Of a stretch of 63,133 bases of DNA, positions 246 to 24,770 are shown in pieces. The position numbers and the translations under genes are program-made. This DNA comes from Candidatus Peribacteria bacterium. Its GTDB lineage: Bacteria > Patescibacteriota > Gracilibacteria > Peribacterales > Peribacteraceae. The stretch lies in contig CALRGQ010000001.1 of NCBI GenBank assembly GCA_943357915.1, positions 72,816 to 135,948 of the forward strand. Reading direction: 5' to 3'. How positions within the stretch are numbered: position 1 is the first letter of the stretch; each line of letters begins with the position of its first letter. The notes under the pieces are model-generated. The model was not told where the DNA came from and ran no database searches. It saw nothing but the letters and a program-made list of their open reading frames with translations.

Positions 246-3200
246 TTACGCATACCGATCCTCTCGCTCGGGCACGAAAGCGCCAATTTGATTTCCTTCT
301 TCGTCGTAGATGATAGGATCCTGAGCCGAACCGTACACTGTGCCACCACTCAGGTTTATGTATTCTCGGATTTCGGCTTGGGTGACGATGCCATCTTCAT
401 TGATGTCTCCAGGGCAGAAAACATTGTTCGCATCATTTTTGTAGGCACCACTTAAAAGCCGCCATCCTAATCCACCGCCCACCACCGTGTTATTGCCAAA
501 TGTTGTCGTATTCTTAGCTGTATATTTCCCGAGATTTTTTTGCATCTTCAGGTGAGAGCCTCCATGACAGGTCGATACATACTTTGTGGAACTCACGCCT
601 GATGCATCAATAAGTTTTAGAATTTCTGAAGAATCAATCCACTCATCCCTTTTTATCACATTGCCTTTGTCATCTTTTTTATCCGTTGGGAATGTATAAG
701 CCATTTTCCCTGCCGCTTCATGTGTGGATTCATATCCGTGGGCATGCAAGACTACCACGACATGCGCTCCAGTTTTCTGTAAAATTTCTAGTTTTCCACG
801 AATCGCTTGATAAAAATCATGCGAGCTTCGGAAGTCATCGGAAATGATTTTATGATTTCCCCCTTCCGGCGCCTGATTTTTTTCATGATGCAGATGCGCA
901 TTTATCTCTTTCGCGAGATCATCTTCTGCTTTAGAAAATTCCTTCGTTGCGATACTCAGAACATGCACTTCTTTTGGTTCTTGTTCTGCAAACTCTTCGC
1001 TCTTTGCAAAAGATTCCCACTGTTTCTTTCGTACATTTGCCCACTCTTCACGAATGTATGTCTGCATGGCAGGCCAATCCTTAAAGTCTCCCTTTTGCAC
1101 CCTCTTGATAATACGTTGATTTACCTGCATCAAAATGCCGTGATCTTTTTCTGCGTCGAAGTAGTGTCGATGTCTCGTAGGATCTGTGTATGGGTATCCA
1201 ACATTCTGAGAGCCATCTTTGAGCGCTGCGAGGATGTGGTCAGCATATTTCTGCTCACTCAAGGTCATCAATCTTTCGAGCAGCCACTGACTATCATGAT
1301 TGAACGGTGTGAATGATAGTTTCTGTGGCAGATTCACCTGTCCGTTGATTCGTGTCAAAAGCTTTGATGCTTTTTGAAACTTCTGTGCATAGGTACTTTC
1401 CGCAATGTATGAGAAGTATTCTAGATACGGTTTACCCACAGTGAGCGCATGAAGTCGTATATCTGTGGTAGGGATACCGATCTTGGGACCTTGAAGTAGA
1501 AGGGCGCTCGGTGCGGCATTCATCCTTTTTCGGATAAAATTTCTGATGGTACTTTCATTTGCTTTATCTTTTGTTGTTTTTCCTGCTTCGTACCACCCCT
1601 CTGCTGGCCTTGCTATCTGGAGAGTATCTTTCTCCTGTTTAAGATGCAGGGCTATTTTATACCTAGGCCCGTCATCTTTCCGATCAATGCATATGTATAT
1701 ATCCGGGCTTGTGCTTGGTCGGGGAAAGTGTGATGAAATCTCATAGAGACTGGCTTCCGTTCCAAGGCTAGACATGATTTCTTTTTTTGCGGATTCCGCT
1801 AGTCGATAAAGATCGTCACACATTGCCGGATAGTTGTCATATTCTTTCACAGAATATTCAAGATCGTATTTTGCATGACTCAAGGCATTGAGATCACTGT
1901 CATTTTCTCGATTTCTGTCTCTCCGCACCGGAATATCTGATTCCGGTAGAAGCGACTTTAGTGTTTTGACTGTTTCCAGCGCTTTTTCAAGTGATGCTTT
2001 GGTGAAAGGCGGTTTCGGCAACACTGCATTCGTCAACGTCTGCAGCTTTCGGGTGATTTGTTGCTCTCTTTCCTCCAAAGAAAACGAAGAGCGAAGATGT
2101 GGTGCCATCAGAGTGGCATCATGGTCATTTCTCTCACTTTCTATATTTTTCTCCTTCAATATTTTTTGAGCACTATCAATTCGCAAGAGAAGAAAAGGGA
2201 TTTCGTTTACAGCACTGACACTACCATTCAGCCACGCACTTTCCAGTGATACGGATAGTATTCCTATTTCTTTCGCCATACTCGTTAACTCTTCCTTCGT
2301 TGCATTCTGTGTGTCCTTGAGTGCTTCTTCGTACTCGAGCATCCTGGTTTTTGCTTTCGGTAGCTCTCGTGCGATGAAGGCGTCTGCAGGTTCGCCTTCT
2401 TGTTTCATTCTTTCCAGAACGCTCCCAGCCTCGCTTCTCGTTTTTTCTATATATTCACCATAATACGATACGCCAGCACTTGAAGGATTCTCTGCGACCT
2501 CGTTATAAAGAACAGTTGCATAGTAGTTAAGGTTACCTTTTGTTTTTCGTGCTTCAAATACTTCATGCAGATCTTCCGACGAATCGATTTCCTGTAGTGC
2601 TTCAAGAGTACGAATGTATATTTCTCGCGCTGTTTCTAGTAGAACTAGATTATCTCCTAACTTCTTCAGGTATTCCTCCGTGGGCTCATTCACTGACTTG
2701 TTTAATTCACTCTTTTCCGTGAGTGGAATGTAGTACGCCCACCTTATATCTCGAAATTTTCGAATCTCTTCGCCAATGCGCTTGAGTAGCGCTGCTTCAG
2801 CTTCCCTTGGCGGTATTTCAATCTTTTCAGCGTCTCGCTCCTCTTCACCTATTTCCTCTTTTAGTTTCGTGAGATTTGATCTTGCTTCCTGTTGAGCCTT
2901 AAATCGAAGGACTTCAGGAGGCGCCTCTTCGGTTGTAGCCTGCTCGATATAATCTTCAGCCGTCGGATCATACTTGGCGACTACTCCTGATGTTGTGACG
3001 AGGTAGAAGCTTGTGCGGCTTAACTTGAGAACCCAGCCATCTTCACCGTTGAACTTCGATGTCGTCTGTATCCATCGATCAGGAAAGTGTGGATTTTTTT
3101 CTTTTGCCTTTAGTTCGACATCGGGGTGCAGAAGTGCCTTCTGCGCATCGGTCATCTTGTCGTACCGCACCCAAGCATTATCGAAGGCAGCTCCTACCCG

Positions 3201-3365
3201 TCCCGAATCTGTCACGATGTAGTGATCACATGCTCCATCCTCATGCTTGTAGGTATAGAGCGTTGCTTTTTCATTCAGATACTCCGTAGCTTCTTCTTTA
3301 GAGAGCGTAGGTTGCGCTTTAAGGGTCTCATTTTGCTCTGCCTGCACTTTGGGTTCCTCAAACAT
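246..3365 (-). CDS. Large hypothetical protein with C-terminal caspase-like (clan CD) peptidase domain
   Basis: 1039 aa ORF. The C-terminal region has VVVVLHAHG, YVSTCHGGS, GDINEDGIVTQAEIREYIN and QDP motifs. TGCTATAAT lies at 3376-3384 and GAGGA just before the ATG. Confidence 0.7.
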   Translation of the reverse strand: MFEEPKVQAEQNETLKAQPTLSKEEATEYLNEKATLYTYKHEDGACDHYIVTDSGRVGAAFDNAWVRYDKMTDAQKALLHPDVELKAKEKNPHFPDRWIQTTSKFNGEDGWVLKLSRTSFYLVTTSGVVAKYDPTAEDYIEQATTEEAPPEVLRFKAQQEARSNLTKLKEEIGEEERDAEKIEIPPREAEAALLKRIGEEIRKFRDIRWAYYIPLTEKSELNKSVNEPTEEYLKKLGDNLVLLETAREIYIRTLEALQEIDSSEDLHEVFEARKTKGNLNYYATVLYNEVAENPSSAGVSYYGEYIEKTRSEAGSVLERMKQEGEPADAFIARELPKAKTRMLEYEEALKDTQNATKEELTSMAKEIGILSVSLESAWLNGSVSAVNEIPFLLLRIDSAQKILKEKNIESERNDHDATLMAPHLRSSFSLEEREQQITRKLQTLTNAVLPKPPFTKASLEKALETVKTLKSLLPESDIPVRRDRNRENDSDLNALSHAKYDLEYSVKEYDNYPAMCDDLYRLAESAKKEIMSSLGTEASLYEISSHFPRPSTSPDIYICIDRKDDGPRYKIALHLKQEKDTLQIARPAEGWYEAGKTTKDKANESTIRNFIRKRMNAAPSALLLQGPKIGIPTTDIRLHALTVGKPYLEYFSYIAESTYAQKFQKASKLLTRINGQVNLPQKLSFTPFNHDSQWLLERLMTLSEQKYADHILAALKDGSQNVGYPYTDPTRHRHYFDAEKDHGILMQVNQRIIKRVQKGDFKDWPAMQTYIREEWANVRKKQWESFAKSEEFAEQEPKEVHVLSIATKEFSKAEDDLAKEINAHLHHEKNQAPEGGNHKIISDDFRSSHDFYQAIRGKLEILQKTGAHVVVVLHAHGYESTHEAAGKMAYTFPTDKKDDKGNVIKRDEWIDSSEILKLIDASGVSSTKYVSTCHGGSHLKMQKNLGKYTAKNTTTFGNNTVVGGGLGWRLLSGAYKNDANNVFCPGDINEDGIVTQAEIREYINLSGGTVYGSAQDPIIYDEEGNQIGAFVPEREDRYA

Positions 3366-3472
3366 AAATCCTCATATTATAGCATATCTATGCGGGAATT
3401 TCTATGTTCGGATTCCTTCTTGGATATCAAAGAAACATCATAAGCCTTGAGCATGGATAGTGTGTATTCCTT

Positions 3473-6400
3473 CTAGAAGAAGCTTCCTCCTCCCCCAAAT
3501 TTATACTGAGTCCTTTTCTCTTCACTCATATGATCACTCATGTATAAGCTTTCTCCTTTTTTTGCTAATATTTTCCCAATGTCGTCACTCACGTCTGTAA
3601 TTCCTGTCAAGATAACAGTCCCCGGAATCTCCACGAGTGCATTCGCGAGATCTATACTGATTGATTCTAAGCCCTCTAAAGACAGTTGTCCCCCCTTAAA
3701 ATCTTTAAAGTGACGTAACACTTCTGGAGTCAGCGTTTTTTCCGTTAGATTATCTAGTCCCAAATATTCTCCTGCAAACGGAGCGAGCGCAGTCGCTGCA
3801 TTTTCGTCCAGCGACGTAATTCCAAGATTGAGAGAAGGCCTAGAAACGGAAGCTAAGAATCTCGCGTCCTCTGCTGATATCGTATCTAATTTCGATAAAC
3901 TGAGACTCACATCGGTTTTCAAATTTTTTAGTTCTGCTGCTACGCCACCTGGCAGGCTAGTGAGCCCATTTAATTCAAGACTACTATTATTCTTTGCGAG
4001 CTCGCGAGCAACATTTGGTGTTAAAAATGCTACATTTATACCATTAAGTGAAAGATAAGAATTCATAGCGACCAAACCCCTTGCCTCACTTTCGGTTAAG
4101 AATGTAAGCCCACCGAAAGAGAGGCAAGAATCGTATTTTTCAAAATCCGCGATCAGCGTTGGTGTTAATTCTTTTATTCCATTCAGAGAAAGGAATGTAC
4201 CTGCTTCCTTAAATATTTTTACTACATCACTCTCGAGAGACGAAAGGCCGTTCAGGCTAAGGTCGTGTGGGATTTCCGATAAAGCAGTTGCTTGATCAGC
4301 ATTCAATGACGTTAATCCATCGAGTGAGAGCTTGTAACCGGTAAATTCTCCTAAAGCAGTTGCAAGATCTGAAGGCAGTTCCGTTAGCCCATTCAATGAA
4401 AGCTCTGCTAGATTAGGAAGTATTTTTGCTATTTCAGGCGTCATACTCGTGAGTCCATTGAGCGCAACTTTTGTTCCTTTGCTTGCAATAATCTCCGCAA
4501 CCTCGGCACTCAGTGGTTCTGTCACACTTGAAAGATCTATAAACACAGGATTTTCTTTCAATAGCCTTGTAGCGACTTCTGTTGACAGAGTTTTTTCGGT
4601 ACTTTTATTTGGGTCCCTCGGCATCGGAGGATCTTCATCGCCTGTTTCATCTTTTCCTGGCGGGATGGGTAGGGGAGTAACAGAGTCTCCTTTTTCTTGC
4701 TCAGATTTCTTTGTCTTATCTACCTTGTACTCTTTATCCAAATATTCCAAGAACTCCGATCGCCATGTCTTTTTTGTCGTATCAACCGTCTTTCTACCTT
4801 CGGTGTTTTTTAGATATATTTTTAATGTTTCGGGGCTCAATGTTGTGCTGAACAGGCCTTTCATATATTCGTATTCTGCTTTTTCTCCTAGATCTACAGG
4901 TTCGGCTTGTCTACCGAGTTCGATAATTGGGATGATCCATGCAGGATCAACAACTTCAAACCTACCAGTATCGTCCTGTTCCAACCCAGAATTTATCATA
5001 CTAATTCTAAAGTTTTCTTCACCGACTTTTTGCGTTTGAACTCTGAAGTCTTTCGTTCCCTTCTTATTGGTGATCAAGGCAATTTGTATCTTTTTGTCTA
5101 GAAGTTGGTACATCAAGTCTACTTCGATTTGTTTAGCCCCTTCTCCTGCAAAGACAATTTCTCTAAAGTTTTCAAAAGAATATTTTCCACCCTGCTTATT
5201 GATTTCTTGTAGGATATTTGAATATTTACTTTTCGCTAGATCATTCAAGGATTTTAGGATAGACAGCAATCCATCTAATTTTTGATCATCGGACCTTGCT
5301 TCAGGCCGAGATATTGTTTCATTTGATATTTCTTCTCGTAGGTTATTTATCTCTTTCAATGAAACAGCTTCGATGGGTTGCTTGCTTAATTCCTCCACCC
5401 TCGCTTTAAAACCTTTCATTTTTTCTTCTAGTGGATCAGTGTCTTTTTCCCTCTCATCAGCTGCTAACAAATGCTCCTCTATTTTCTTGATGACTTTATC
5501 AGTCTCATTTACGTATGAAATAGCAAACCTACCCTTGTCTCTTTTTACAATAACGTTCATTATAACACTTCCATCGATAGCGATATCAATGTCAAGCCAA
5601 CAGGATTGGCCACCTCTCGTCAGCTCCCAGCGAATCAGTTGAGCGTATGGATCATTTTGCTCTACAAAGACTGTTCCCTTGGGGAATCTGGGCTGTAGGT
5701 TTGTAAAAATTTTATTGATATTCTTTACCCTTTCTTTTTTTTCGTTTATCTCAGATTCCAATTTTTTGATTTCCTCAGCTTCCTTATCGCTTGGACTATA
5801 TTGTTTTGCTTGATCTAAAGCTGTTTTTGCTTCATCTAGATTGTCTTCCTTCAATAATTGGCATAGTCCTATGCCACAAGCAGCACTCTTTAAAACCAAA
5901 CCTTCTTTTAGTAATTTTATGGCAGCATCTTTCTCTTGGATTATTAAAAAACATTTGGCACCTAAATATCGGACTGATATATCTGTAGGTTTTTCAGTAC
6001 AAAATCTTCCGATTTCAGCTTTTACCTTTGCCACGTTTATACCATCACCCATAGGTGTCTCGTGGTTTGCTACGAGATATAGGAGCAAAAGACGAATGTC
6101 TTTTTCTTGGTTTTTTTCTATAATGTCAATATACATTTGACTCGCCCATTGCAATTGGGATTTTTTTACTTCGAGTTTTTCCAACAAAATAATTATTTGA
6201 TCCGGTTCTAGTTTTTGAATTTCTGTTTGCATAGAATTCAATGCTTCCTGATCTGCGTTTGTCAGATCTCTCTGGAGAATGTCGCTCAGTGCTGGCATTT
6301 TAGCTCCTAAATCATCTTTTCCCTTCTCAGCGTCTGTTAACAAATAATTGTTTATTTTCTGAATGACTTTATTAGTATCATTTAGAGTGAATGTATATTT

Positions 6401-16874: not shown

Positions 16875-17471
16875 GTGTCTCTTCTCCCTCCGCAAATCCA
16901 AAAGGCCATCGAGGAGTTTAGTAAACTCCCGGGCATCGGCCCCAAGTCCGCAGAACGGATGACGTTTCATTTACTGCGGTCCAGTAAAGCGACGCCGGAA
17001 GGCCTAGGGAATGCACTGATCGCACTGAAGCGTGATCTGAAGTATTGCAAAACATGTCAGATGATTTCTCTGAACGAAGAATGTTCGATTTGTGGTGACA
17101 GATCTCGTGATGCAACGCAGATTTTGGTCGTCGAGGAACCACTGGAAGTCGTCGCGTTTGAGAAAGCTGGATACAAAGGTCTGTATCACGTGCTGCATGG
17201 CGTGCTCTCACCGATTGATGGCATGGGACCTGAGCAGCTGAAGCTTAAAGAGTTGGTCGAGCGTTGCAAAACCGGCGAGATCGCAGAAGTTATCGTGGCG
17301 ACGAACTTAGATACCGAAGGTGAAGCCACAGCGGCGTACATTAAGCAGCAAGTAACGCCGAATGTGCAGAAAATTACTCGGCTCGCGCACGGTCTTCCTA
17401 TGGGTGCAGACATTGAGTTCGCGGATCAGGTCACGCTCAGAGAGGCGATTGCGGGGCGGAGGAGTGCTTAG
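16875..17471 (+). CDS. recR: Recombination mediator RecR
   Basis: LPGIGPKSAER HhH motif, C4 zinc finger, YHVLHG, EGEATA and ITRLAHGLPMG motifs. Confidence 0.97.
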   Translation: MSLLPPQIQKAIEEFSKLPGIGPKSAERMTFHLLRSSKATPEGLGNALIALKRDLKYCKTCQMISLNEECSICGDRSRDATQILVVEEPLEVVAFEKAGYKGLYHVLHGVLSPIDGMGPEQLKLKELVERCKTGEIAEVIVATNLDTEGEATAAYIKQQVTPNVQKITRLAHGLPMGADIEFADQVTLREAIAGRRSA

Positions 17472-18406
17472 AGTTTTTCCTGTACGAGCTTGATCGCATC
17501 ACCGATTCTTGGTTCACCGAGTGATCGCCAGCCAGATGAGGCCATACGTTCGTGTGCCGTCTGATCTGGTACCCACTTCACCACAACGTCGATGCCTCCG
17601 CCGTTTTGGTAGATACTAGAAACGCCGGGGTTTGCTTCGCCGAGAGACTGGGCGATTTCGAGCGGACCCGTCGGATGTGCGTGACCGTTGTGAGTGAGAA
17701 GCAGGTGCACACAGTTACGGCTATTGCCGGATTGTGATGCGATGCGGGCGATCTGTTCCCACTGTGACTCCGCGTTGTCGACACGCGTGATGACGTTACC
17801 GAAACGGTCAACGTACGCGACATGCCAGTCTGTGCGTGGATCGGGAATGTCCGAGATATTTGCATCCCGGAGCTCGAGCTTGTGATTGGGATTGAGAAGC
17901 CGAGGAGTAAGGCGGGAACGGAATTGTTCACGGCCGGTGTAAAGACCATTGAAGCCAGTGGGGTCGCTTGGGTTATCGAGATATTGAAGAGTTTCGATGT
18001 CGCCTTTGATCGCAGAAAGCCCTGAGAGAGGCGTCGAGACAATGTGGATATTTCCTTCTCTTGCAGTTGCGAGATAGAAAGGCTGGGCGTTGTTGCGTGC
18101 CACGCGTGGCGCGCTGTTGATGAAAACACCTGTACCACCTTTTATCGCAAAGTCGCGTTCTTCGTCAGACAAGTCTACGCGCCTCATCAGTTCGTCATGT
18201 TGTGAAACAACGAGTCTTAAAATGTGATCGGCGAGCGCTTCCTGGCCGAAAATGTCGAACTCGCGGTGAATGCGGTCTGTCGGTCGTCCGCCGAAATCGG
18301 TTGAGATCAAGACATCGGAATCTGGCTGTGTCAGGGGATTCGGTGGATCTTCCGGGCCTCCGTAGGTATCGGAGAGATAATAGGTGCGGAGAGGAGCATT
18401 TTGCAT
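17468..18406 (-). CDS. Divergent SAM hydroxide adenosyltransferase / DUF62 (chlorinase-fluorinase superfamily) protein
   Basis: ISTDFG (compare LTDFG), NSAPR, QFRSR (compare TFHGRD) and AYVDRFGNVIT (compare YIDxFGNxxT). Confidence 0.7.
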   Translation of the reverse strand: MQNAPLRTYYLSDTYGGPEDPPNPLTQPDSDVLISTDFGGRPTDRIHREFDIFGQEALADHILRLVVSQHDELMRRVDLSDEERDFAIKGGTGVFINSAPRVARNNAQPFYLATAREGNIHIVSTPLSGLSAIKGDIETLQYLDNPSDPTGFNGLYTGREQFRSRLTPRLLNPNHKLELRDANISDIPDPRTDWHVAYVDRFGNVITRVDNAESQWEQIARIASQSGNSRNCVHLLLTHNGHAHPTGPLEIAQSLGEANPGVSSIYQNGGGIDVVVKWVPDQTAHERMASSGWRSLGEPRIGDAIKLVQEKL

Positions 18407-18450
18407 GGTGGAAGTGGGAATTAGAGATGAGAAAGTGATATACGATCATA

Positions 18451-18476
18451 AGAAAAGTTCTCGCGATCTGCGCGAG
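18451..18476 (-). terminator. Attenuator hairpin of Met leader A1
   Basis: CTCGCG-CAGAT-CGCGAG then AACTTTTCT. The 5' arm can alternatively pair with leader segment 18514-18520. Confidence 0.6.
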
Positions 18477-18496
18477 TGGTGAGCTTGGTCGCGTGC

Positions 18497-18568
18497 TTAC
18501 GCGATCAGCGACCCCCGCGCGAGGCGCATCATGTCCATCATCATGCCGCTGGTGCGTAGGGTGCTCAT
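18497..18568 (-). CDS. Met-rich leader peptide A1, MSTLRTSGMMMDMMRLARGSLIA
   Basis: 23 aa ORF with 5 of 6 consecutive codons ATG. Paralogous to 22613-22687 and starts 8 nt after a -10 hexamer. Confidence 0.85.
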   Translation of the reverse strand: MSTLRTSGMMMDMMRLARGSLIA

Positions 18569-18576
18569 GCGCGCGC

Positions 18577-18604
18577 AGTATGGCGAAACCATAAAACACG
18601 TCAA
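18577..18604 (-). promoter_or_regulatory. Promoter for leader A1 (probably leaderless transcript)
   Basis: TTGACG, 16 nt, CATACT, 8 nt, ATG. Confidence 0.6.
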
Positions 18605-18675
18605 TCTTTCATGATAGGAAGATCGGTTTTTAGCTAGAGGATGAGCAAAAATCGTGCATCGACGACGGACGATAT

Positions 18676-18705
18676 CGCAGCGGAAGATCGCGATCTTCCG
18701 CTGCG
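18676..18705. repeat. Perfect 30 bp palindrome
   Basis: CGCAGCGGAAGATCG-CGATCTTCCGCTGCG, just downstream of the SIMPL remnant. Confidence 0.85.
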
Positions 18706-18721
18706 TGTGCGTGTGCTTTTT

Positions 18722-18973
18722 TTAGCGTAGTTCATACGAAATCGTCACATTCGACACGATTTCCTGCTCTCCGGCGGGAATTGGCATACTTTCCTGCGCG
18801 ACTGCATTACCCATATCGTAGTTTGCCTTCGTCAGCATTGGCGTCGGATAACCGTAGGCGCCATCTTCACTGAAGGCGGTCATGCGGCCGAGTGACATGC
18901 CAAGATTTTTTGCGAGCACTTCTGCTTTCGCTTTCGCCTTCTCGATTGCGATCTCACGAGCCTGCGCCTTCAT
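18722..18973 (-). pseudogene. 3' remnant of a SIMPL-domain gene
   Basis: 83 aa, differing at 4 positions from the C-terminus of 22856-23611, with many synonymous changes. Confidence 0.9.
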
Positions 18974-18979
18974 AAACTT

Positions 18980-19303
18980 CTATTTTTTGTCGAGTGCAAA
19001 CGGCTCAAACATGAGCACGTACGACTTCCCCACACTCTTCGGGCAGTGTTCCACTCCCTTTGGTACGATGCCAATTTCCCCTGCTTTCAGCACGAGATCA
19101 GACTCACCTTTCATCTGGATCGTGATTTCACCTTCGTGCACGAGGAAGAGTTCATCCTCGTTCTCATGCACGTGCCAATGATACTCACCCTCGAAGAGTG
19201 CGATGCGGACGACCTGATCGTTCACACGAGCGAGTTCGACCGGCGACCATGATTGCGTGATTTGTTGGATTGCATCGGCGATGGAAATGGGTTGGGGGAG
19301 CAT
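18980..19303 (-). CDS. Cupin domain protein
   Basis: GEYHWHVHENEDELFLVHEG and VPKGVEHCP cupin motifs. Confidence 0.92.
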   Translation of the reverse strand: MLPQPISIADAIQQITQSWSPVELARVNDQVVRIALFEGEYHWHVHENEDELFLVHEGEITIQMKGESDLVLKAGEIGIVPKGVEHCPKSVGKSYVLMFEPFALDKK

Positions 19304-19309
19304 AGGGGT

Positions 19310-20008
19310 TTAGAGAATGATACTGGGATGTTCTCTGTCGAGAATATCGATTCGCGCTTCTGCTTTGCAATGCTCTTTCACTAGTAGAGAAAGTTCTTCC
19401 AGAATTTCCTTCAAACGATCTTTCGTGAGAGGTGGGAAACCTTCCACGACGATAATCGCACGCTTCGTTTCAGCTGTGATCTTCGCTCGATCACCTTCTC
19501 GCCAATTGAGCTTCCTGCAAATTACGCCTGCATCGTCTTTGTACACGAGTTCTCCTACTGCTGGAGGATCCTCTACTGTTTCCCCGAGTGGAACAAAATG
19601 TTCGGTGCCCGTTGCGTATGCAAGCCGCACGTCGCCGGTGCACAGATCGGTATCTTCCGCACCGACACACACGACGTACTTCAGCGAGATGACATTGTAG
19701 AGGTTGACCAGTGGATTGATACTCGGGAGCTTCCCACCCTTCAGTACACGCTTGAGGAGAGCTTGCACTGAGGGCGGGAATTTATTCGGATTGTTTCCAA
19801 AGCTCCTGTGGACGGTCTGTATGGCGACGAGGTTCGGGTGATCTTTGAAGGAGTCAATGTTGTGCGATGTATGTACATGCTCTTCTGTTGCCTGCAGCAG
19901 CGCTGCCGATTCTCCGTGATCGACATTACTCATACCCGTTGCGACGATAACGCCAATGGCGATGTCCGGGTGGGCGGCGAGGACGGTGGGGTGGAGGAGG
20001 AAGTGCAT
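19310..20008 (-). CDS. B3/4 domain protein (PheRS editing-like)
   Basis: PSVQALLKRV, LPSINPLVNLYNVISL, GELVYKD and CRKLNWREGD motifs. Confidence 0.9.
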   Translation of the reverse strand: MHFLLHPTVLAAHPDIAIGVIVATGMSNVDHGESAALLQATEEHVHTSHNIDSFKDHPNLVAIQTVHRSFGNNPNKFPPSVQALLKRVLKGGKLPSINPLVNLYNVISLKYVVCVGAEDTDLCTGDVRLAYATGTEHFVPLGETVEDPPAVGELVYKDDAGVICRKLNWREGDRAKITAETKRAIIVVEGFPPLTKDRLKEILEELSLLVKEHCKAEARIDILDREHPSIIL

Positions 20009-20070
20009 GGGGGAGAGTAGAGAGTGATGAGAATTCTATAGTAGGGCAATAGTGTTTTATTGTAGAAACA

Positions 20071-20127
20071 GAGTTTGCGGATCAGTTCACGCTACGAGAG
20101 GCGATTGCGGGACTGAGGAGTGCGTAA
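20071..20127 (+). pseudogene. 3' remnant of recR (last 18 codons)
   Basis: EFADQFTLREAIAGLRSA* versus EFADQVTLREAIAGRRSA* at 17415-17471. Confidence 0.9.
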
Positions 20128-20169
20128 CAAGCGATTTCCTAATATTCACGTGCGACTCCTTAGGCGGAT

Positions 20170-20703
20170 TCATGTACTGAAAATATCGTTGGCAATCGTG
20201 ACGAGTTCCTCACGATCAACTTCGTCGAAAGCCTCAGTGAATTCGCTGTCTACATCGAGCACAGCGATCAGGTTCTTTTGCCGGTCAAATATCGGTACAA
20301 CGATCTCAGACTGAGACCTGCTATCACATGCGATATGACCGGGGAATTTTTGCACGCTGGGGACGATGATTGGCTTTTGTGAACGGGCACACGCCCCACA
20401 AACGCCACGATTGAAGTGGATACGCAGGCAGCCGAGAGTTCCCTGGTAGGGCCCTACGACGAGTTCGTCGCCTTTCGTTGGGTCTACTTGATAGAATCCC
20501 GTCCAGAAGAAATAAGGCAGGTGATGAGCGAGGATGCCAGTCACTGTCGCCATACGTGCAATGACATCGCTTTCTCCCTCCAGGACTGCGGAAGCAGTCT
20601 TTCGGGCTTGAAGGTAGATCGCCCGCTTTTCTGTTGCTGAAAGCAAGCGATGAGTCTGTTCATGAGGAAGCTGGTCGTTGATGGTGCTTGTAAGAGAAGA
20701 CAT
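20170..20703 (-). CDS. msrC: GAF-domain free methionine-(R)-sulfoxide reductase
   Basis: WTGFY, GPYQGTLGC, GVCG, FPGHIACD, SEIVVP and VLDVDS motifs, the fRMsr/YebR signature. Confidence 0.85.
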   Translation of the reverse strand: MSSLTSTINDQLPHEQTHRLLSATEKRAIYLQARKTASAVLEGESDVIARMATVTGILAHHLPYFFWTGFYQVDPTKGDELVVGPYQGTLGCLRIHFNRGVCGACARSQKPIIVPSVQKFPGHIACDSRSQSEIVVPIFDRQKNLIAVLDVDSEFTEAFDEVDREELVTIANDIFST

Positions 20704-20732
20704 GTAAAAGAATGGGGAAAGAGAAATAAATA

Positions 20733-22073
20733 TTACTTCAATCTGGTTTCTAAAATATGTTTAATAAGTGCTGGGCCAGTAACTTCTCCAAATGCATTGA
20801 ATGCAACGAGGGGTGCCCCGCCTTTTTCTGGAGCATGTGCCAAACCATTTGCATACACTCCAGGTATTACTGTGTCATTAAAGCCAATTACTTGGCCGTT
20901 GTCTGTTACACAAACAGCCTGTCGTCTCTCAGAAAGCTTTGGACCAAGTGGCATTCCACTTGAATCGTCTATTCTTACATAACTTGCCGGATATCCAGTT
21001 GCCACAATAATTATTTGTGCATTTTGATATTCTTCTTTGGCTTCAGATAAATGTTCAACTTGTTGGCTTGTAATCCTTTTCTCGTTTCCGGAGGTTGCCG
21101 CAAGAATGAGATCACGTGCTACATTGCGAATACCCTTCCAACGATGAACTGCAGGATGGTTAGGATCATTGTCTATGTCTCTCCGAGAGAAGTTTGTATA
21201 GCCTGCTAGCTCTGCTTCCTGCGAATTGGGGAAATATAGATATATTGGGCTACGGTGCACTATATGTGAGCCTCCTTCGGCAATATCAATTCCTTGCTGT
21301 TGAGCATGCTCAATTAATGCATAATTCCCTGAGCCTACGCTATAGGAACTCCCAACCCACACGACACCTCCTTTTTTTTGTGCTGCTAGAGCCACCTTAT
21401 GTAATTGGTGTATGTCTGAATGAACTGAGTCAGCAGTTATTATTTTTGCCTGAAAAGAATGTAATTCAGGTGGAATAGGCTGAGACTTGCCACCAGTTGC
21501 AAGAATAACATTTGTAGTAGAAAGTGCTGGCTCATTTTTGTCAGTATAAACATTCCAATCACCTCGGAAACACTGCTCAACAGTGTCAACAGTTTTATTT
21601 GGGAAGAAGTCACAGGAATGTATTCCCTTTAATACTTGATGAATTTTATCTCCTAAAGCATCTAAAAGATCTGCGATAGGTCCGAATCTAAGTACATCAT
21701 TTTCTGCAGCCACCTTCTTAGCTTCTGGTAAGCCTTGGAGGTCACCGAATACCTCATTTTGAGGTAGCCAATTTGTCCAGTCTGGACCTGGCGAATTACT
21801 TAAAAATGGTACATTTTCAAAATTTCTAAGAGATCCACTACCAATGCAATCTGATTGAGTTACCACCGCGATGCCACTACTTTCTTGATTATTTGATTCT
21901 ACTACTCTTCTAAATGCTGCTTTACCTTTATTAGCTAGCGCTAAGATAGTAGCTAAAGCTCCAGGCCCTCCTCCTGCAAGGAGGATACTATATTTTTTCT
22001 CACTTTCTTGTCGTGCGACTTCATCTCTCAGAAAACGATGGCCTGCCGATGGTGTAAGAGATTTTTTTTTCAC
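20733..22073 (-). CDS. FAD/NAD(P)-binding oxidoreductase, function unknown
   Basis: ILLAGGGPGA Rossmann motif, VILATGG, degenerate second motif VGSSYS, and IIVATGY. Visibly AT-richer than the core genes. Confidence 0.8.
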   Translation of the reverse strand: MKKKSLTPSAGHRFLRDEVARQESEKKYSILLAGGGPGALATILALANKGKAAFRRVVESNNQESSGIAVVTQSDCIGSGSLRNFENVPFLSNSPGPDWTNWLPQNEVFGDLQGLPEAKKVAAENDVLRFGPIADLLDALGDKIHQVLKGIHSCDFFPNKTVDTVEQCFRGDWNVYTDKNEPALSTTNVILATGGKSQPIPPELHSFQAKIITADSVHSDIHQLHKVALAAQKKGGVVWVGSSYSVGSGNYALIEHAQQQGIDIAEGGSHIVHRSPIYLYFPNSQEAELAGYTNFSRRDIDNDPNHPAVHRWKGIRNVARDLILAATSGNEKRITSQQVEHLSEAKEEYQNAQIIIVATGYPASYVRIDDSSGMPLGPKLSERRQAVCVTDNGQVIGFNDTVIPGVYANGLAHAPEKGGAPLVAFNAFGEVTGPALIKHILETRLK

Positions 22074-22107
22074 AATGGTATTGGGGAAATTAGTCTAATA
22101 AAAATAT

Positions 22108-22362
22108 TCAGTTTTTCCTGCGGAGCACATTTGCTATTGCGCTGCCTGCACAGTGGACTTGCTCCAAGCATTCGAGAAAAACCGCATCAGGTATCTCCTG
22201 TTCTCCTTGTTCAAGAGAGCGCTTTGCTCCTTGCCGCGCATCGATCCAAATTTTTCTTAGTTCGTCTTTTGTAAGGTTGGGACCTTCGAGAGCGAGTTCT
22301 TCGACAGACACAAGTTCCAACTTATCTGCTAATGGTTGCGTTGAGGGTTGAGTAGTAGCCAT
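22108..22362 (-). CDS. Small hypothetical protein (84 aa) with CxxxxxC
   Basis: MATTQPSTQP...ECLEQVHCAGS...RRKN. First ATG after the attenuator; the longer ORF start overlaps the leader and terminator. Confidence 0.7.
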   Translation of the reverse strand: MATTQPSTQPLADKLELVSVEELALEGPNLTKDELRKIWIDARQGAKRSLEQGEQEIPDAVFLECLEQVHCAGSAIANVLRRKN

Positions 22363-22391
22363 GGTAATGATTGGAATGAAAAGGGAATAAG

Positions 22392-22424
22392 AAAAAACAC
22401 CTCCGCGTGTAGTCCCGCGGGGTG
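22392..22424 (-). terminator. Intrinsic terminator of leader B attenuator
   Basis: CACC-CCGCG, loop, CGCGG-A-GGTG, then T6. Segment 22412-22421 is perfectly complementary to leader segment 22459-22468. Confidence 0.8.
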
Positions 22425-22444
22425 AGTCATGAGTCTTATTTCTC

Positions 22445-22540
22445 TCATGCCTTCGTCTCCCGCGGGACACGCATGCACATACACATCATCGCCATAACGC
22501 GATTTGTGATGAGGCCGGAGGAGAAGGAGTGGTGGTTCAT
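22445..22540 (-). CDS. Met/Cys-rich leader peptide B, MNHHSFSSGLITNRVMAMMCMCMRVPRETKA
   Basis: 31 aa ORF with an MAMMCMCM control region directly before the antiterminator strand. Confidence 0.8.
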   Translation of the reverse strand: MNHHSFSSGLITNRVMAMMCMCMRVPRETKA

Positions 22541-22567
22541 GGGATCAGAATATTTTCATTGATACGG

Positions 22568-22592
22568 AAAAGTGCCCCGCGATCTGCGCGAG
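22568..22592 (-). terminator. Attenuator hairpin of Met leader A2
   Basis: CTCGCG-CAGAT-CGCGGG then GCACTTTT. Homologous to 18451-18476; alternative pairing with 22630-22636. Confidence 0.6.
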
Positions 22593-22612
22593 TGGTGATG
22601 GTGTGCGATTCT

Positions 22613-22687
22613 TTACGCAGCAACCAACCCTCGCGCTAGGCGCATCATCATGCTCATCATCATGGTGGTGGGTCGGAGAGTTGTCAT
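22613..22687 (-). CDS. Met-rich leader peptide A2, MTTLRPTTMMMSMMMRLARGLVAA
   Basis: 24 aa ORF with 6 of 7 consecutive codons ATG. Paralog of A1; preceded by TCGACA-17-TTAAAT-8 nt. Confidence 0.85.
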   Translation of the reverse strand: MTTLRPTTMMMSMMMRLARGLVAA

Positions 22688-22855
22688 GTGCGCATATTTA
22701 AATGCCATATCGTATTTTTGTCGAGAGTTTTGGAGCATTGTTTCTATACATGGCTTATGGATGCGGGAAAATAGTGGTGGTTGTTTACTTGACACGTCAC
22801 CTTTCCACAAAAAAGACGCGCACATTGCACGTCTCTATTCTTTCTGCAGTACTAT

Positions 22856-23611
22856 TTAGCGTAGTTCATACGAAATCGTCACATTCGACACGATTTCCTG
22901 CTCTCCGGCTGGGATAGGCATGCTTTCCTGTGCCACCGCTCCTCCCATATCGTAATTCGCCTTTGTCATCATTGGCGTCGGATAAGCGTAGGCGCCATCT
23001 TCACTGAAGGCAGTCATACGGCCGAGTGACATACCGAGATTCTTCGCAAGAACCGTTGCTTTTGCCTTCGCTTTCTCGATAGCGATCTCACGAGCCTGTG
23101 CCTTCATGGCATCCGGATTATCGACGGTGAATGTAATGCCACCAGCCTGATTTGCGCCGGCGGTCGTAGCGACGGTGAGGACATCACCGACTTTATCAAG
23201 ATCACGGACTTTGACCCGCAGTGTCTGTGTTGCCTGAAATCCACGTGGGATCTGCCCGCCGGTTGTGTAGTCGTACTCGGGGCTCAGGTAGAAGCTTTCG
23301 GTTGCAATGTCTTTCTCTTCAATGCCGAGTTCTTTCACTGCTACCAAAATATTTGTCATATTTTTCTTGATGACGTCGGTTGCAGCTTTTGCGTTGGGCT
23401 GTCTGCCGGTCGTGACGCCGAAGCTCATGTACGCGATGTCCGGCGGTGTCGAAATTTTTCCTTCTGCACTGACTGAAATCACCGGGGGATTTGTGAGTGG
23501 GCCTTTAACTTCCATCTGTTTGCCGGCGAGAAAGAACGCACCGCCGATGATGACGGCAGTGATCAGAGCCCAGACGGGCGGATGCAGGGTGGTGGTGTTT
23601 GAATCAGACAT
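22856..23611 (-). CDS. SIMPL domain (DUF541/YggE-like) protein
   Basis: N-terminal TM segment, ISVSAEG...PD.A, LGIEEKDIAT, GANQ and PGEQ-like C-terminal motif. Confidence 0.92.
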   Translation of the reverse strand: MSDSNTTTLHPPVWALITAVIIGGAFFLAGKQMEVKGPLTNPPVISVSAEGKISTPPDIAYMSFGVTTGRQPNAKAATDVIKKNMTNILVAVKELGIEEKDIATESFYLSPEYDYTTGGQIPRGFQATQTLRVKVRDLDKVGDVLTVATTAGANQAGGITFTVDNPDAMKAQAREIAIEKAKAKATVLAKNLGMSLGRMTAFSEDGAYAYPTPMMTKANYDMGGAVAQESMPIPAGEQEIVSNVTISYELR

Positions 23612-23690: not shown

Positions 23691-24770
23691 TCAGCTTTTC
23701 TTTGCCAATAGGGTGTAACGTATGGCTCTTCCGCTGCCAATCCGCACAATTTTTTTCAGAGCGACGAGCTTTCTTAGCACTTGATCGACCGTTCTAATAT
23801 TAACTCCTGTTTTTTCAGATACTTCTTTTCTGCTCATATTCTTTGCCTCCTGGAGTGTTTTCCAGACGATCAATTGATTCTCTGAAAGAAAGTTCTCGGT
23901 TTGGTCTTCTTTTGTGAGAGCAACGGCCATCTCTCCCTGTCGAGCAAACATGCGAAGGATAAAGAGAATCCACGGTGAAATGTCTTCATGAGCCTTCTTC
24001 CATGTCGAGGTTGATTTCTTGAGCGCGAGATAATAATCCACTTTGTGGTCTTCAATAATCTTCTCATGGGAGATATAGGGAGTGAATCCATAACCATGTT
24101 GTAATAAGAGAAGATTCGTGAGAATGCGACTTGTTCTGCCGTTTCCATCCTGAAAAGGATGAATGGCGAGATACTCAAAAATGAAGTTTGCGATGATAAG
24201 AAGTGGATGGAACATATGCTCTTTAAATTGTGCTTGCGTCCATTCCGTCAGTTCTTGCATCTCTTTTCCGGTCAGGTATGGCGGAGTCGGATCGAAGATA
24301 ATGCCAACGACTTTCCCCTGTGCATCTACAGCTTCGACGCGGTTCGGAGCGAATTTGTATTGCCCTTTATGACGGACATCTTTCTCACTATGTCGTAATG
24401 TCGATACGTGCATATGCTTAATGAGGTTTTCCGAGAACTTCATGGCATTCCACGATTCAAAAACATTTTTGATTGTTTCAAGATAGCCCATAACTTCCTG
24501 CTCATCGCGGGTGCGAAGTTTTCGTATTTTGGCATTTCGCAGGAGCTGTTCCACTTCCTCATCACTAAGATGGCTCCCCTCAATGCGTGTTGAAGAGCCG
24601 CTAGAACTTACAATGATCGCATGCTTCATTCTTGCCAAGTATTCTGGAGAGAGAAGCTGGAAGGCTTCCCAGTAGCCCTTACATTCATCGATTCGCGCCA
24701 AGAGCTTGGTGATCTCTCTCGTGACTTCCGGAGAATAGTGGAGCCGTTTTTGGAAGCGGTTGTGCGTCAT
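23691..24770 (-). CDS. Fic family protein with C-terminal HTH
   Basis: Canonical HPFQDGNGRTSR motif and N-terminal STRIEG inhibitory-type motif. Confidence 0.93.
   Translation of the reverse strand: MTHNRFQKRLHYSPEVTREITKLLARIDECKGYWEAFQLLSPEYLARMKHAIIVSSSGSSTRIEGSHLSDEEVEQLLRNAKIRKLRTRDEQEVMGYLETIKNVFESWNAMKFSENLIKHMHVSTLRHSEKDVRHKGQYKFAPNRVEAVDAQGKVVGIIFDPTPPYLTGKEMQELTEWTQAQFKEHMFHPLLIIANFIFEYLAIHPFQDGNGRTSRILTNLLLLQHGYGFTPYISHEKIIEDHKVDYYLALKKSTSTWKKAHEDISPWILFILRMFARQGEMAVALTKEDQTENFLSENQLIVWKTLQEAKNMSRKEVSEKTGVNIRTVDQVLRKLVALKKIVRIGSGRAIRYTLLAKKS

Follow-up and report, generated by a model that had tools for sequence, protein, structure and literature searches.

Organization of the recR-SIMPL interval

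The window analyzed here is a 63,133-nt stretch of a metagenome-assembled genome (MAG) of a Candidatus Peribacteria bacterium, a member of the candidate phyla radiation (CPR); all coordinates are positions in this window. The MAG comprises 1.39 Mb in 66 contigs and is 97% complete, and the source sequence also occurs in metagenomes of lakes and freshwater. Members of the CPR are thought to live on material from other cells, DNA included, and to our knowledge concrete footprints of imported DNA built into their small genomes are rare. We examined the interval between the genes recR and SIMPL (DUF541), where two sets of cargo genes lie stacked together with remnants of both flanking genes; our preferred reading, to which we give a probability of roughly 0.6, is an integrase-free addition, in tandem, of alleles of one slot. 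Gene calls, from an open reading frame (ORF) listing and Pfam, and further features are as follows:

16875..17471, plus strand: intact recR (Pfam Toprim_4, RecR_HhH and RecR_C; amino acid identity of 91-94% to same-genus relatives)
17405-17470, plus strand: final 66 nt of recR, reference copy of the recR-end repeat (repeat D3)
17468..18406, minus strand: 312-aa DUF62-like gene, cargo of unit 1, whose stop overlaps the recR stop
18450..18604, minus strand: leader A1 (sequence, promoter and terminator scan, match to covariance model R1 with E 9e-29)
18675..18708, no strand: perfect palindromic hairpin just 3' of the stop of the SIMPL remnant, without counterpart in unit 2
18721..18973 (ORF 18722-18973), minus strand: SIMPL 3' remnant, 83 aa plus stop (Pfam SIMPL profile positions 126-205; repeat D1)
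18980..19303, minus strand: cupin gene, 107 aa, without a leader of its own (Pfam Cupin_2)
19310..20008, minus strand: stand-alone B3/4-domain gene, 232 aa, without a leader of its own (Pfam B3_4)
20061..20126, plus strand: recR 3' remnant, final 21 codons plus stop (repeat D3, blastn)
20170..20703, minus strand: fRMsr/MsrC-type GAF gene (Pfam GAF_2, PDB matches)
20733..22073, minus strand: FAD/NAD(P)-binding oxidoreductase-like gene (flavoprotein), 446 aa (Pfam Lys_Orn_oxgnase only, E 0.008)
22108..22362, minus strand: 84-aa ORF, first gene behind leader B (ORF call; no Pfam or NCBIfam match)
22392..22540, minus strand: leader B (sequence, terminator scan, fold z-score -3.45)
22566..22700, minus strand: leader A2 (sequence, repeat D2, R1 match with E 9e-33)
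22856..23611, minus strand: intact SIMPL (DUF541; Pfam SIMPL E 4.5e-50)

With remnants marked by a prime, the order is recR, DUF62-like, A1, SIMPL', cupin, B3/4, recR', fRMsr, flavoprotein, 84 aa, B, A2, SIMPL. An earlier note on this DNA had given the same gene order and leader positions, which ORFs, Pfam and sequence bear out, and had described a unit of recR end, cargo, Met leader and SIMPL end that is present twice with different cargo. The repeat finder recovers this unit in both places; however, the B3/4-cupin segment is left unexplained by a simple twofold unit, as is apparent from an operon in another genome of the family (G165, see below). The hairpin at 18675..18708 is probably the terminator of the donor SIMPL gene.

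As the earlier note had also stated, no integrase lies nearby: Pfam detected no integrase or transposase domain in the 27 ORFs between 9.5 and 36 kb, six of which lack any Pfam match, and the sole Phage_integrase match of the genome is on another contig (C40). The genome encodes ComEC, DprA and a prepilin peptidase. The ComEC (Competence) match, at G000:C59:1487-2224, contains one TAG, which may reflect two ORFs, an error or a broken gene.

Repeats and remnants of the flanking genes

Three repeats, all direct and in register, connect both units: the SIMPL-end repeat D1 (18721-18973 vs. 22855-23107; 253 nt, 87% identity by the repeat finder), the leader A repeat D2 (18462-18560 vs. 22578-22676; 99 nt, 72%) and the recR-end repeat D3 (17405-17470 vs. 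20061-20126; 66 nt, 83%). Local blastn comparisons of the gene ends with the slot interior gave E values of 1e-86 for SIMPL and 7e-16 for recR, so these matches are not due to chance. When the units are aligned, homology begins abruptly at 18973/18974, 6 nt behind the cupin stop, and extends to the SIMPL stop; there is no alignment between this stop and the leader, where each unit has its own hairpin, and homology returns over the leader. A second abrupt end of homology is found at 20060/20061.

The SIMPL remnant shows the four amino acid changes in 83 that the earlier note had counted (T/E, A/G, M/L, G/N), together with 32 nucleotide differences from the resident gene, of which 25.3 are synonymous and 6.7 non-synonymous (dS 0.69, dN 0.035, dN/dS 0.05), and no indel or stop. 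Under a model with one neutral branch, ~64% of the differences would be non-synonymous, against 7/32 observed (binomial test, P ~1e-6). The branch of the remnant in the tree is 0.053 vs. 0.11 for the intact gene, and a relative-rate count assigned eight derived sites to the intact gene and five to the remnant, which is not significant. The low dN/dS, the lack of indels and stops and a branch that does not exceed the intact gene's in length argue that the remnant diverged as a working gene and was truncated recently, in agreement with the claim that it diverged under selection and did not decay in place. With an in-frame ATG retained 6 nt behind the cupin stop and its 83-codon frame unbroken, the remnant could also be translated as a fragment.

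The recR remnant is located 43 nt from the fRMsr stop, where an intact recR would be expected. It contains five non-synonymous and six synonymous changes in 21 codons, and all five replacements fall within ADIEFADQVTLREAIAGRR, which is invariant in same-genus relatives; this remnant looks like one that decayed in place. Divergence under selection fits the SIMPL remnant but not the recR remnant. The ratio of non-synonymous to synonymous changes does not differ significantly between the two remnants (Fisher P 0.24, with small numbers), so that the assignment of an older and a younger scar rests mainly on the position of the recR replacements. Their different decay suggests at least two events of different age and makes the stack datable by its two scars.

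Phylogenetically, the SIMPL remnant and the resident SIMPL are nearest relatives among the sampled species (support 85/90), with 87% identity vs. 70-77% to other same-genus species and the nearest genera; the donor of the SIMPL allele would therefore belong to an unsampled lineage. Polarization of donor and recipient by the identity of each SIMPL copy to the same-genus genomes G001 or G002 was uninformative, with differences of ≤1%. The last 55 nt of both copies are identical (18721-18775 = 22855-22909). This is not a consequence of conservation, since the third-position identity of this stretch to the intact copy in eight other species (37-68%) is no higher than in the rest of the region (41-50%). 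The ~13 synonymous sites unchanged here, where 56% differ elsewhere, have a chance probability of ~3e-5 for a stretch that was picked post hoc, and the identity points to a recent crossover or conversion between copies, which would imply that both share a cell.

The same arrangement would also be expected from an in-genome tandem duplication of the segment between 66 nt before the recR stop and 253 nt before the SIMPL stop, followed by replacement of one cargo, with the 83-aa SIMPL ORF expressed and kept by selection. Duplication of exactly that segment yields the order recR, cargo, leader, SIMPL' / recR', cargo, leader, SIMPL, and is in line with the sister relationship of both SIMPL copies among sampled species and with the retained start codon and open frame behind the cupin gene. 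However, dS 0.69 with dN/dS 0.05 would need selection of whole-gene strength on an 83-aa piece without the N-terminal two thirds of the domain, while the recR remnant does decay; moreover, the cargo differs completely, no alignment is possible for the intergenic stretches that separate SIMPL from leader A, and 1087 bp containing B3/4 and cupin occupy the supposed joint. We consider this explanation unlikely. The earlier note had raised the possibility that the remnants would branch as in-genome duplicates with neutral decay; the SIMPL copies are sisters among sampled species, yet the SIMPL remnant is not neutrally decayed.

Contiguity of the stack

The assembly was checked with per-run contigs (k=31 graphs) from four runs. 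In run X1, a 4139-nt contig (record 4) corresponds without difference to 18746-22884 and spans the junctions SIMPL'|cupin, B3/4|recR' and recR'|fRMsr, and records 12 and 13 of run X2 cover the same inner junctions. A 497-nt contig from run X5, which belongs to another study (record 28; 18328-18824), connects the start of the DUF62-like gene, via A1 and the 55-mer, with remnant-specific sequence. Unit 1, the insert and the right flank had similar depths (10.2/9.7/9.6 in X1 and 7.1/7.1-9.1/8.3 in X2, in this order). The only breaks between contigs are at a 55-nt node matching both 18721-18775 and 22855-22909, whose depth in X1 is 15.5 vs. ~9.7 for its neighbors. Pieces of both cargo sets were found at similar low depth in two further studies. 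Runs X3 and X5 have no cover from cupin to fRMsr and say nothing either way on this part; no joint for a circular form or an empty site was seen in the four runs, whose contigs drop rare variants.

Strain merging, which the earlier note had named as a possible artefact, is unlikely, with the inner junctions spanned by per-run contigs at equal depth. In its most specific form, the true slot would be recR, DUF62-like, A1, SIMPL, and a 4134-bp segment from a co-occurring strain or circle would have been threaded in via the 55-mer. This is compatible with a 66-contig MAG and with the two entries and two exits of the 55-mer in the k=31 graphs, the edges of which also accommodate a simple slot together with a 4134-bp circle. 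Nevertheless, both ends of the segment connect only to the 55-mer, hence it is not the ordinary slot of another strain, and it carries no replication gene detectable with Pfam or NCBIfam. Likewise, in two runs it has the same depth as either flank, the joins cupin|SIMPL' and B3/4|recR' lie outside repeats and in single contigs, and both the contig of the independent study and the pieces of both cargo sets in two further ones speak against an artefact, which we hold to be very improbable.

The recR-SIMPL interval is a variable slot in Peribacteria

We delimited 18 slots, counting each distinct locus once (this genome and 17 others). The frame smpB-recR> ... <SIMPL-sufC is conserved, with convergent flanks, in all 18 loci, and the slot, 5390 bp long here, measures 366-4115 bp in the other 17. 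Of these slots, four are nearly empty, the smallest one (366 bp) being geneless, and several contain a leader and a homocysteine S-methyltransferase (PF02574 in 7/12 slot proteins scanned). In G002, a DUF62-like gene with 80% amino acid identity abuts recR as in the window, while in G001 leaders of types A and B lie between SIMPL and a distant DUF62-like gene; both leader/cargo layouts of the window thus occur singly in congeners. The slot of one species combines a DUF62-like gene with a methyltransferase, and others add a small methyltransferase or a 2-oxoglutarate (2OG)-oxygenase-like gene, with at least four cargo sets within the genus alone. The recR-SIMPL interval in Peribacteria is therefore a variable slot with syntenic flanks and species-specific content, and this comparison supports the view that both units of the window are versions of one slot.

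Internal remnants of recR or SIMPL were found in none of the 17 other distinct slots, so that 1/18 is stacked, and a metagenome scan with the SIMPL alignment gave 18 loci with four new complete slots, none of them stacked. The earlier interpretation as a cassette array is not supported, given this absence of remnants in relatives. It had also placed the array behind one conserved leader, which did not hold either: the two units carry separate putative attenuators, and there is none for B3/4-cupin.

Two metagenome contigs of the same genus contain a further slot allele, with a 264-aa 2OG-Fe(II) oxygenase/WelO5-like gene between SIMPL and leader A (L141 519-1313, L127 7854-8342), followed by a homocysteine methyltransferase-like gene. 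The assemblies of G002 (C46 end/C8 start) and G014 (C5 end/C22 start) break inside the slot, which may reflect strain-level variation.

Leaders with runs of Met codons

Leader A1 comprises a promoter-like site (18604-18577), a 23-codon ORF (18568-18497; MSTLRTSGMMMDMMRLARGSLIA) with five Met in six codons, and a terminator-like hairpin (18476-18460) with a T-rich tail. Leader B contains a 31-codon ORF (22540-22445), ending ...VMAMMCMCMRVPRETKA, and a terminator-like site (22420-22403) with a T-run; leader A2 contains a 24-codon ORF (22687-22613; MTTLRPTTMMMSMMMRLARGLVAA) and a terminator-like site at ~22592-22575. The three leader ORFs carry 5-7 Met codons, and that of B also two Cys codons. 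A GC-rich hairpin and a T-run follow each of A1, B and A2, and terminator-like sites were called for A1 and B. B-type leaders also occur in G001, G014 and G165.

A covariance model of leader A (R1), built from ten sequences, had matches in 107/151 family genomes at E ≤ 0.01. All 25 further loci picked by strong R1 matches encode a Met-run peptide of the form MMM-x-MMM-R-S-x-R-G, and 10 slot loci also encode a Met-run peptide; 4/25 of the strong loci are inside a recR-SIMPL slot. Among 31 proteins encoded downstream of R1 loci, 23 have no Pfam family and the other eight are three homocysteine methyltransferases (PF02574), one full SAM_HAT (L121), one weak SAM_HAT_C, two methyltransferases and one HisRS-like protein; relatives of the DUF62-like gene are found at five R1 loci. 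The proposed pairings 1:2, 2:3 and 3:4 of leader A (pause helix, antiterminator and terminator) have 80-83% of cells paired in the register put forward, and 28-65% when slid; a first RNAalifold run on the leaders had given a weak consensus of -4.9 kcal/mol. In Rfam, neither the gathering scores nor a limit of E ≤ 5 gave a family for the leaders.

Tandem R1 matches, 130-220 nt apart, occur in seven genomes (G049:C34, G020:C1, G129:C29, G080:C121, G133:C157, G149:C3 and G150:C52), and putative attenuators in tandem are common in this family. A fourth, weak match to leader A lies elsewhere in the genome (G000:C33:161-288, E 0.0024). The promoter-like element TTGACG-N16-CATACT (18577-18604) is directly before the leader ORF, with ~8 nt from the -10 box to the ATG; a similar element is found at the same position in L022, L023 and L057, and the CATACT box recurs in relatives, even in a slot without a leader. 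Given this arrangement, the mRNA that encodes the leader peptide may itself be leaderless or nearly so.

From these features we infer that the leaders would work by attenuation. Transcription of the cargo would start at a promoter behind SIMPL and pass through leader-peptide attenuators; under a shortage of Met-tRNA, the ribosome would stall at the AUG run and leave GCGCGAGGG free to pair with CUCGCGC, the terminator would not be formed, and the cargo would be made. The controlled genes supply Met, by annotation only: fRMsr, PF02574 (7/12 slot and 3/31 downstream proteins), SAM_HAT and the DUF62 fold. The slot cargo thus appears to consist mostly of methionine-yielding enzymes, namely homocysteine S-methyltransferase, SAM (S-adenosylmethionine)-hydrolase-fold proteins and fRMsr. 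A methionine-limitation regulon of salvage enzymes makes sense in Peribacteria, which are reported, in the part of PMC4736985 that deals with them, to be without most amino-acid biosynthesis.

These putative attenuators resemble those of trp, his, leu, thr and pheA in having a short ORF with a run of the regulatory codon, mutually exclusive helices and a U-run terminator (both proposed here) and downstream genes that supply that amino acid (by annotation). They differ in that the regulatory codon is AUG, the host is a CPR bacterium and the genes encode salvage enzymes, not a biosynthetic pathway; additionally, two unlike leaders are often in tandem, and no Rfam family corresponds to them. Full-text searches of the literature found no Met-codon attenuators. 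In the passages on regulation of PMC2965389, leader peptides are given for other amino acids and methionine appears only under riboswitches and a T-box, and, according to the relevant passage of PMC1262725, methionine operons in Actinobacteria showed no RNA element.

The locus would tie a SAM hydrolase fold, homocysteine methyltransferases, fRMsr, a relative of B3/4 deacylases and a cupin into one methionine-starvation regulon, with an attenuator type absent from Rfam and functional leads for several proteins of unrecognized role. We regard this putative regulon and its attenuators as more remarkable biology than the stack.

Proteins encoded by the cargo

The 312-aa protein encoded next to recR matched Pfam SAM_HAT_C with E 0.0023, below the cut-off; phmmer against the PDB and NCBIfam gave no match, and a bona fide SAM_HAT protein was matched by BLASTP with no better than E 0.94. 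An AlphaFold2 model built on eight relatives (mean pLDDT 67) was compared with the PDB using Foldseek, and the 40 matches listed with E ≤ 0.001 all belong to the DUF62, SalL/chlorinase or fluorinase family (TM 0.36-0.59). At the fold level, the model therefore suggests a SAM hydrolase/DUF62 fold (SAM hydroxide adenosyltransferase, chlorinase, fluorinase). The DUF62 label that this protein had received earlier is thus supported by structure and not by sequence, where it has a sub-threshold match to SAM_HAT_C only.

The best PDB matches of the GAF protein are 3mmh, 1vhm, 1f5m and 3ksf (E 2e-25 to 1e-32), and the free methionine-(R)-sulfoxide reductases among them (3mmh, 1vhm, 1f5m) identify it, by sequence, as a predicted enzyme of this fRMsr/MsrC type, as its earlier label msrC implied. 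The flavoprotein had no phmmer match in the PDB below E 0.17, and its neighbors in the atlas are clusters of Pyr_redox_2 / NAD_binding_9, which is a lead only. Its gene has a GC content of 41.4% vs. 48.3% for the genome (z -2.3) and a relative in 1/150 other family genomes (G165), and it was probably acquired from outside the genus.

The B3/4 protein matched 9f7e and 9mkl (E 1e-29 to 2e-30) and is related to the canavanyl-tRNA deacylase CtdA. It has relatives in 28/150 other family genomes and in 0/4 same-genus genomes; among 11 other genomes, none has B3/4 adjoining recR, SIMPL or cupin, and one (G165) has it adjoining a GAF gene. Cupin relatives are found in 7/150 other family genomes, again with 0/4 in the genus; in these seven genomes, none is in the recR-SIMPL slot within 1.5 kb, and in 3/7 the cupin gene is 1.1-2.3 kb downstream of a same-strand leader A.

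In G165 (L125, C113, positions 2767-5884), next to recG, an A-type leader and a B-type leader precede genes for a flavoprotein-like protein (482 aa), a GAF protein (234 aa) and a B3/4 protein (231 aa, 68% identical to that of the window), with no recR remnant. A+B leaders, flavoprotein, GAF and B3/4 would therefore represent an operon type of its own. The terminator scan found no terminator-like site on the minus strand between fRMsr and B3/4. The G165 operon, the cupin genes behind leader A elsewhere and the lack of an intervening terminator suggest that B3/4-cupin may be the functional tail of unit 2, and not a leaderless third layer. Either this combination was first made by an event like variant (a) below and then kept, or the history of the recR remnant is otherwise.

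Origin of the stack

Our preferred reading is a tandem addition of alleles of one slot. This had been the proposal of the earlier note, and it stands as the best explanation; its extension to a system that forms arrays does not, with 1/18 slots stacked and arbitrary borders. With a single stacked slot among 18, the stack is most likely a rare, one-off additive recombination scar and not a working cassette array. In this genome, the usual replacement of alleles would have gone wrong at least twice. DNA of related Peribacteria, probably arriving via transformation, would have been joined by one homologous and one non-homologous end, so that the incoming cargo was added and not exchanged; the process would amount to homology-facilitated illegitimate recombination, to which a single Campbell-type crossover within the 3' end of SIMPL would be equivalent. 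The anatomy, the variability of the slot, the pattern of selection on the remnants, the contiguity in per-run assemblies and the rarity of stacks are observed; we infer the entry route of the DNA and the order and kind of the joins. The older event would have left the 66-nt recR end beside fRMsr and the younger one the 253-nt SIMPL end beside cupin.

Any workable history needs two or more events that each combine a homologous with a non-homologous join, and two variants can be considered. In variant (a), a fragment with recR, cupin and B3/4 would first have joined 66 nt before the stop of the resident recR, and later a fragment with recR, DUF62-like, A1 and the last 253 nt of the donor SIMPL would have joined at the cupin stop; this fits a recR scar that looks older and a fresh SIMPL scar. 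In variant (b), the 4134-bp segment would have entered a genus-typical slot (recR, DUF62-like, A1, SIMPL, cf. G002) by a single crossover in the SIMPL 3' end, which is the simplest account of the identical 55-mer and needs a circular or otherwise duplicative intermediate. The identity of the SIMPL copies to G001 and G002 (≤1% difference) does not tell both variants apart.

Several results weigh against tandem addition from related strains and the regulation proposed for the cargo. Among the per-run contigs listed, none links A2 to the intact SIMPL across the 55-mer, so that this join rests on the original assembly, depth and elimination, and X1 and X2, two of the four runs, may be the source sample itself. 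No donor allele was found, the resident SIMPL being the nearest relative of the remnant, and in a metagenome scan with the DUF62-like protein 0/104 pattern matches encoded a relative. The recR remnant of the window lies inside an operon type that is also seen in G165, which simple layers do not predict, and the low GC content and rarity (2/151) of the flavoprotein gene suggest that part of unit 2 came from outside the genus. Finally, covariation support for the attenuator helices is weak, with few compensatory changes.

A more far-reaching possibility, which we find doubtful, is that the recR-SIMPL interval serves as a homology-armed exchange site for methionine-starvation modules. The recR end, the block of leader and promoter and the SIMPL end would be its arms, and naturally transformed, methionine-auxotrophic cells would swap modules from lysed relatives; stacks would be reversible intermediates, resolved via the 55-nt repeat, in which a new module is tried and the old one kept. 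Flavoprotein, fRMsr, B3/4 and cupin behind A+B would then constitute a mobile repair module for oxidized or mis-charged methionine. Least probable of all is a dedicated integrase-free cassette system with the recR end, leader A and the SIMPL end as recombination arms and modules regularly added in tandem: the slot is highly variable between conserved flanks, leader A is a conserved 130-nt element beside many cargo sets and the G002 and G014 assemblies break inside the slot, but the other 17 slots contain no remnants, the borders are arbitrary and inside genes (253 and 66 nt from the stops) without a shared site, the repeat finder detected no attC-like repeat family, and only 4/25 strong leader A loci adjoin SIMPL or recR.

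If alleles were indeed added in tandem, the locus would be the footprint of a recombinase-free addition of an allelic gene set at a site exchanged between species. The stack itself is a single, probably accidental event that defines no new mechanism; it adds a new instance to a known class of recombination scars, in a lineage with few such footprints.

Comparison with known systems

The minimal mobile elements of Neisseria were reportedly dealt with by Saunders and Snyder in 2002 and by Snyder and coworkers in 2007. In both those elements and the slot, conserved flanks enclose varying whole-gene cassettes without mobility genes. They are defined by two conserved genes with different whole-gene cassettes between them, in the section of PMC3082526 devoted to them, where their exchange is ascribed to homologous recombination of the flanks in a transformable host. 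In contrast to these elements, which vary between strains, the comparison here is between species of a CPR family, and the cargo has one theme (methionine supply) and its own attenuators; likewise, two alleles side by side with remnants of both flanks are not produced by simple replacement.

Displacement of C-terminal ends is also said to occur in Rhs and contact-dependent inhibition (CDI) systems, as reportedly described by Jackson and coworkers in 2009. In Vibrio cholerae, orphan arrays of type VI secretion system (T6SS) effector-immunity modules arise by sequential displacement, according to the part of Kirchberger et al. (2017; PMC5361080) that treats them. As in our stack, modules in the T6SS/Rhs arrays described there are added beside a conserved anchor, the old ones stay with the 3' end of the displaced gene, and there is no integrase, homology-facilitated illegitimate recombination being proposed. 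However, those arrays are described as recurring in many strains and as thought to be selected for retained immunity, whereas here stacking affects 1/18 slots, housekeeping genes on either side supplied the remnants, and metabolic genes make up the cargo.

Regarding the mechanism, homology-facilitated illegitimate recombination has reportedly been studied in transformable bacteria by de Vries and Wackernagel in 2002, Prudhomme and coworkers in 2002 and Meier and Wackernagel in 2003, and we know of no experiment on it in CPR bacteria. The genome studied here has ComEC and DprA. In the descriptions given in passages of PMC5361080 and PMC3240628, a homologous anchor plus an illegitimate join adds foreign DNA without a recombinase. 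The experimental events, as far as those descriptions go, usually delete recipient DNA at the join, whereas gene ends are duplicated here. The stack resembles a Campbell-type integration in that a 4134-bp insert lies between direct target repeats (253 nt, 87%, with a 55-nt identical core) and could be lost again by recombination; unlike in such integrations, no replicon or circular form is known, and a circle would need the cupin end joined to mid-SIMPL. Integron-like features were not found, there being no adjacent integrase or attI, no shared border repeat and no common promoter.

Outside the interval, a gene with a Fic/DOC domain and a C-terminal winged-helix region (23691-24770, minus strand) sits between SIMPL and sufC. 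This insertion is present only in this genome, SIMPL abutting sufC in relatives, and a 77%-identical Fic gene is located just upstream of the tandem A-type leaders in G049 (L107).

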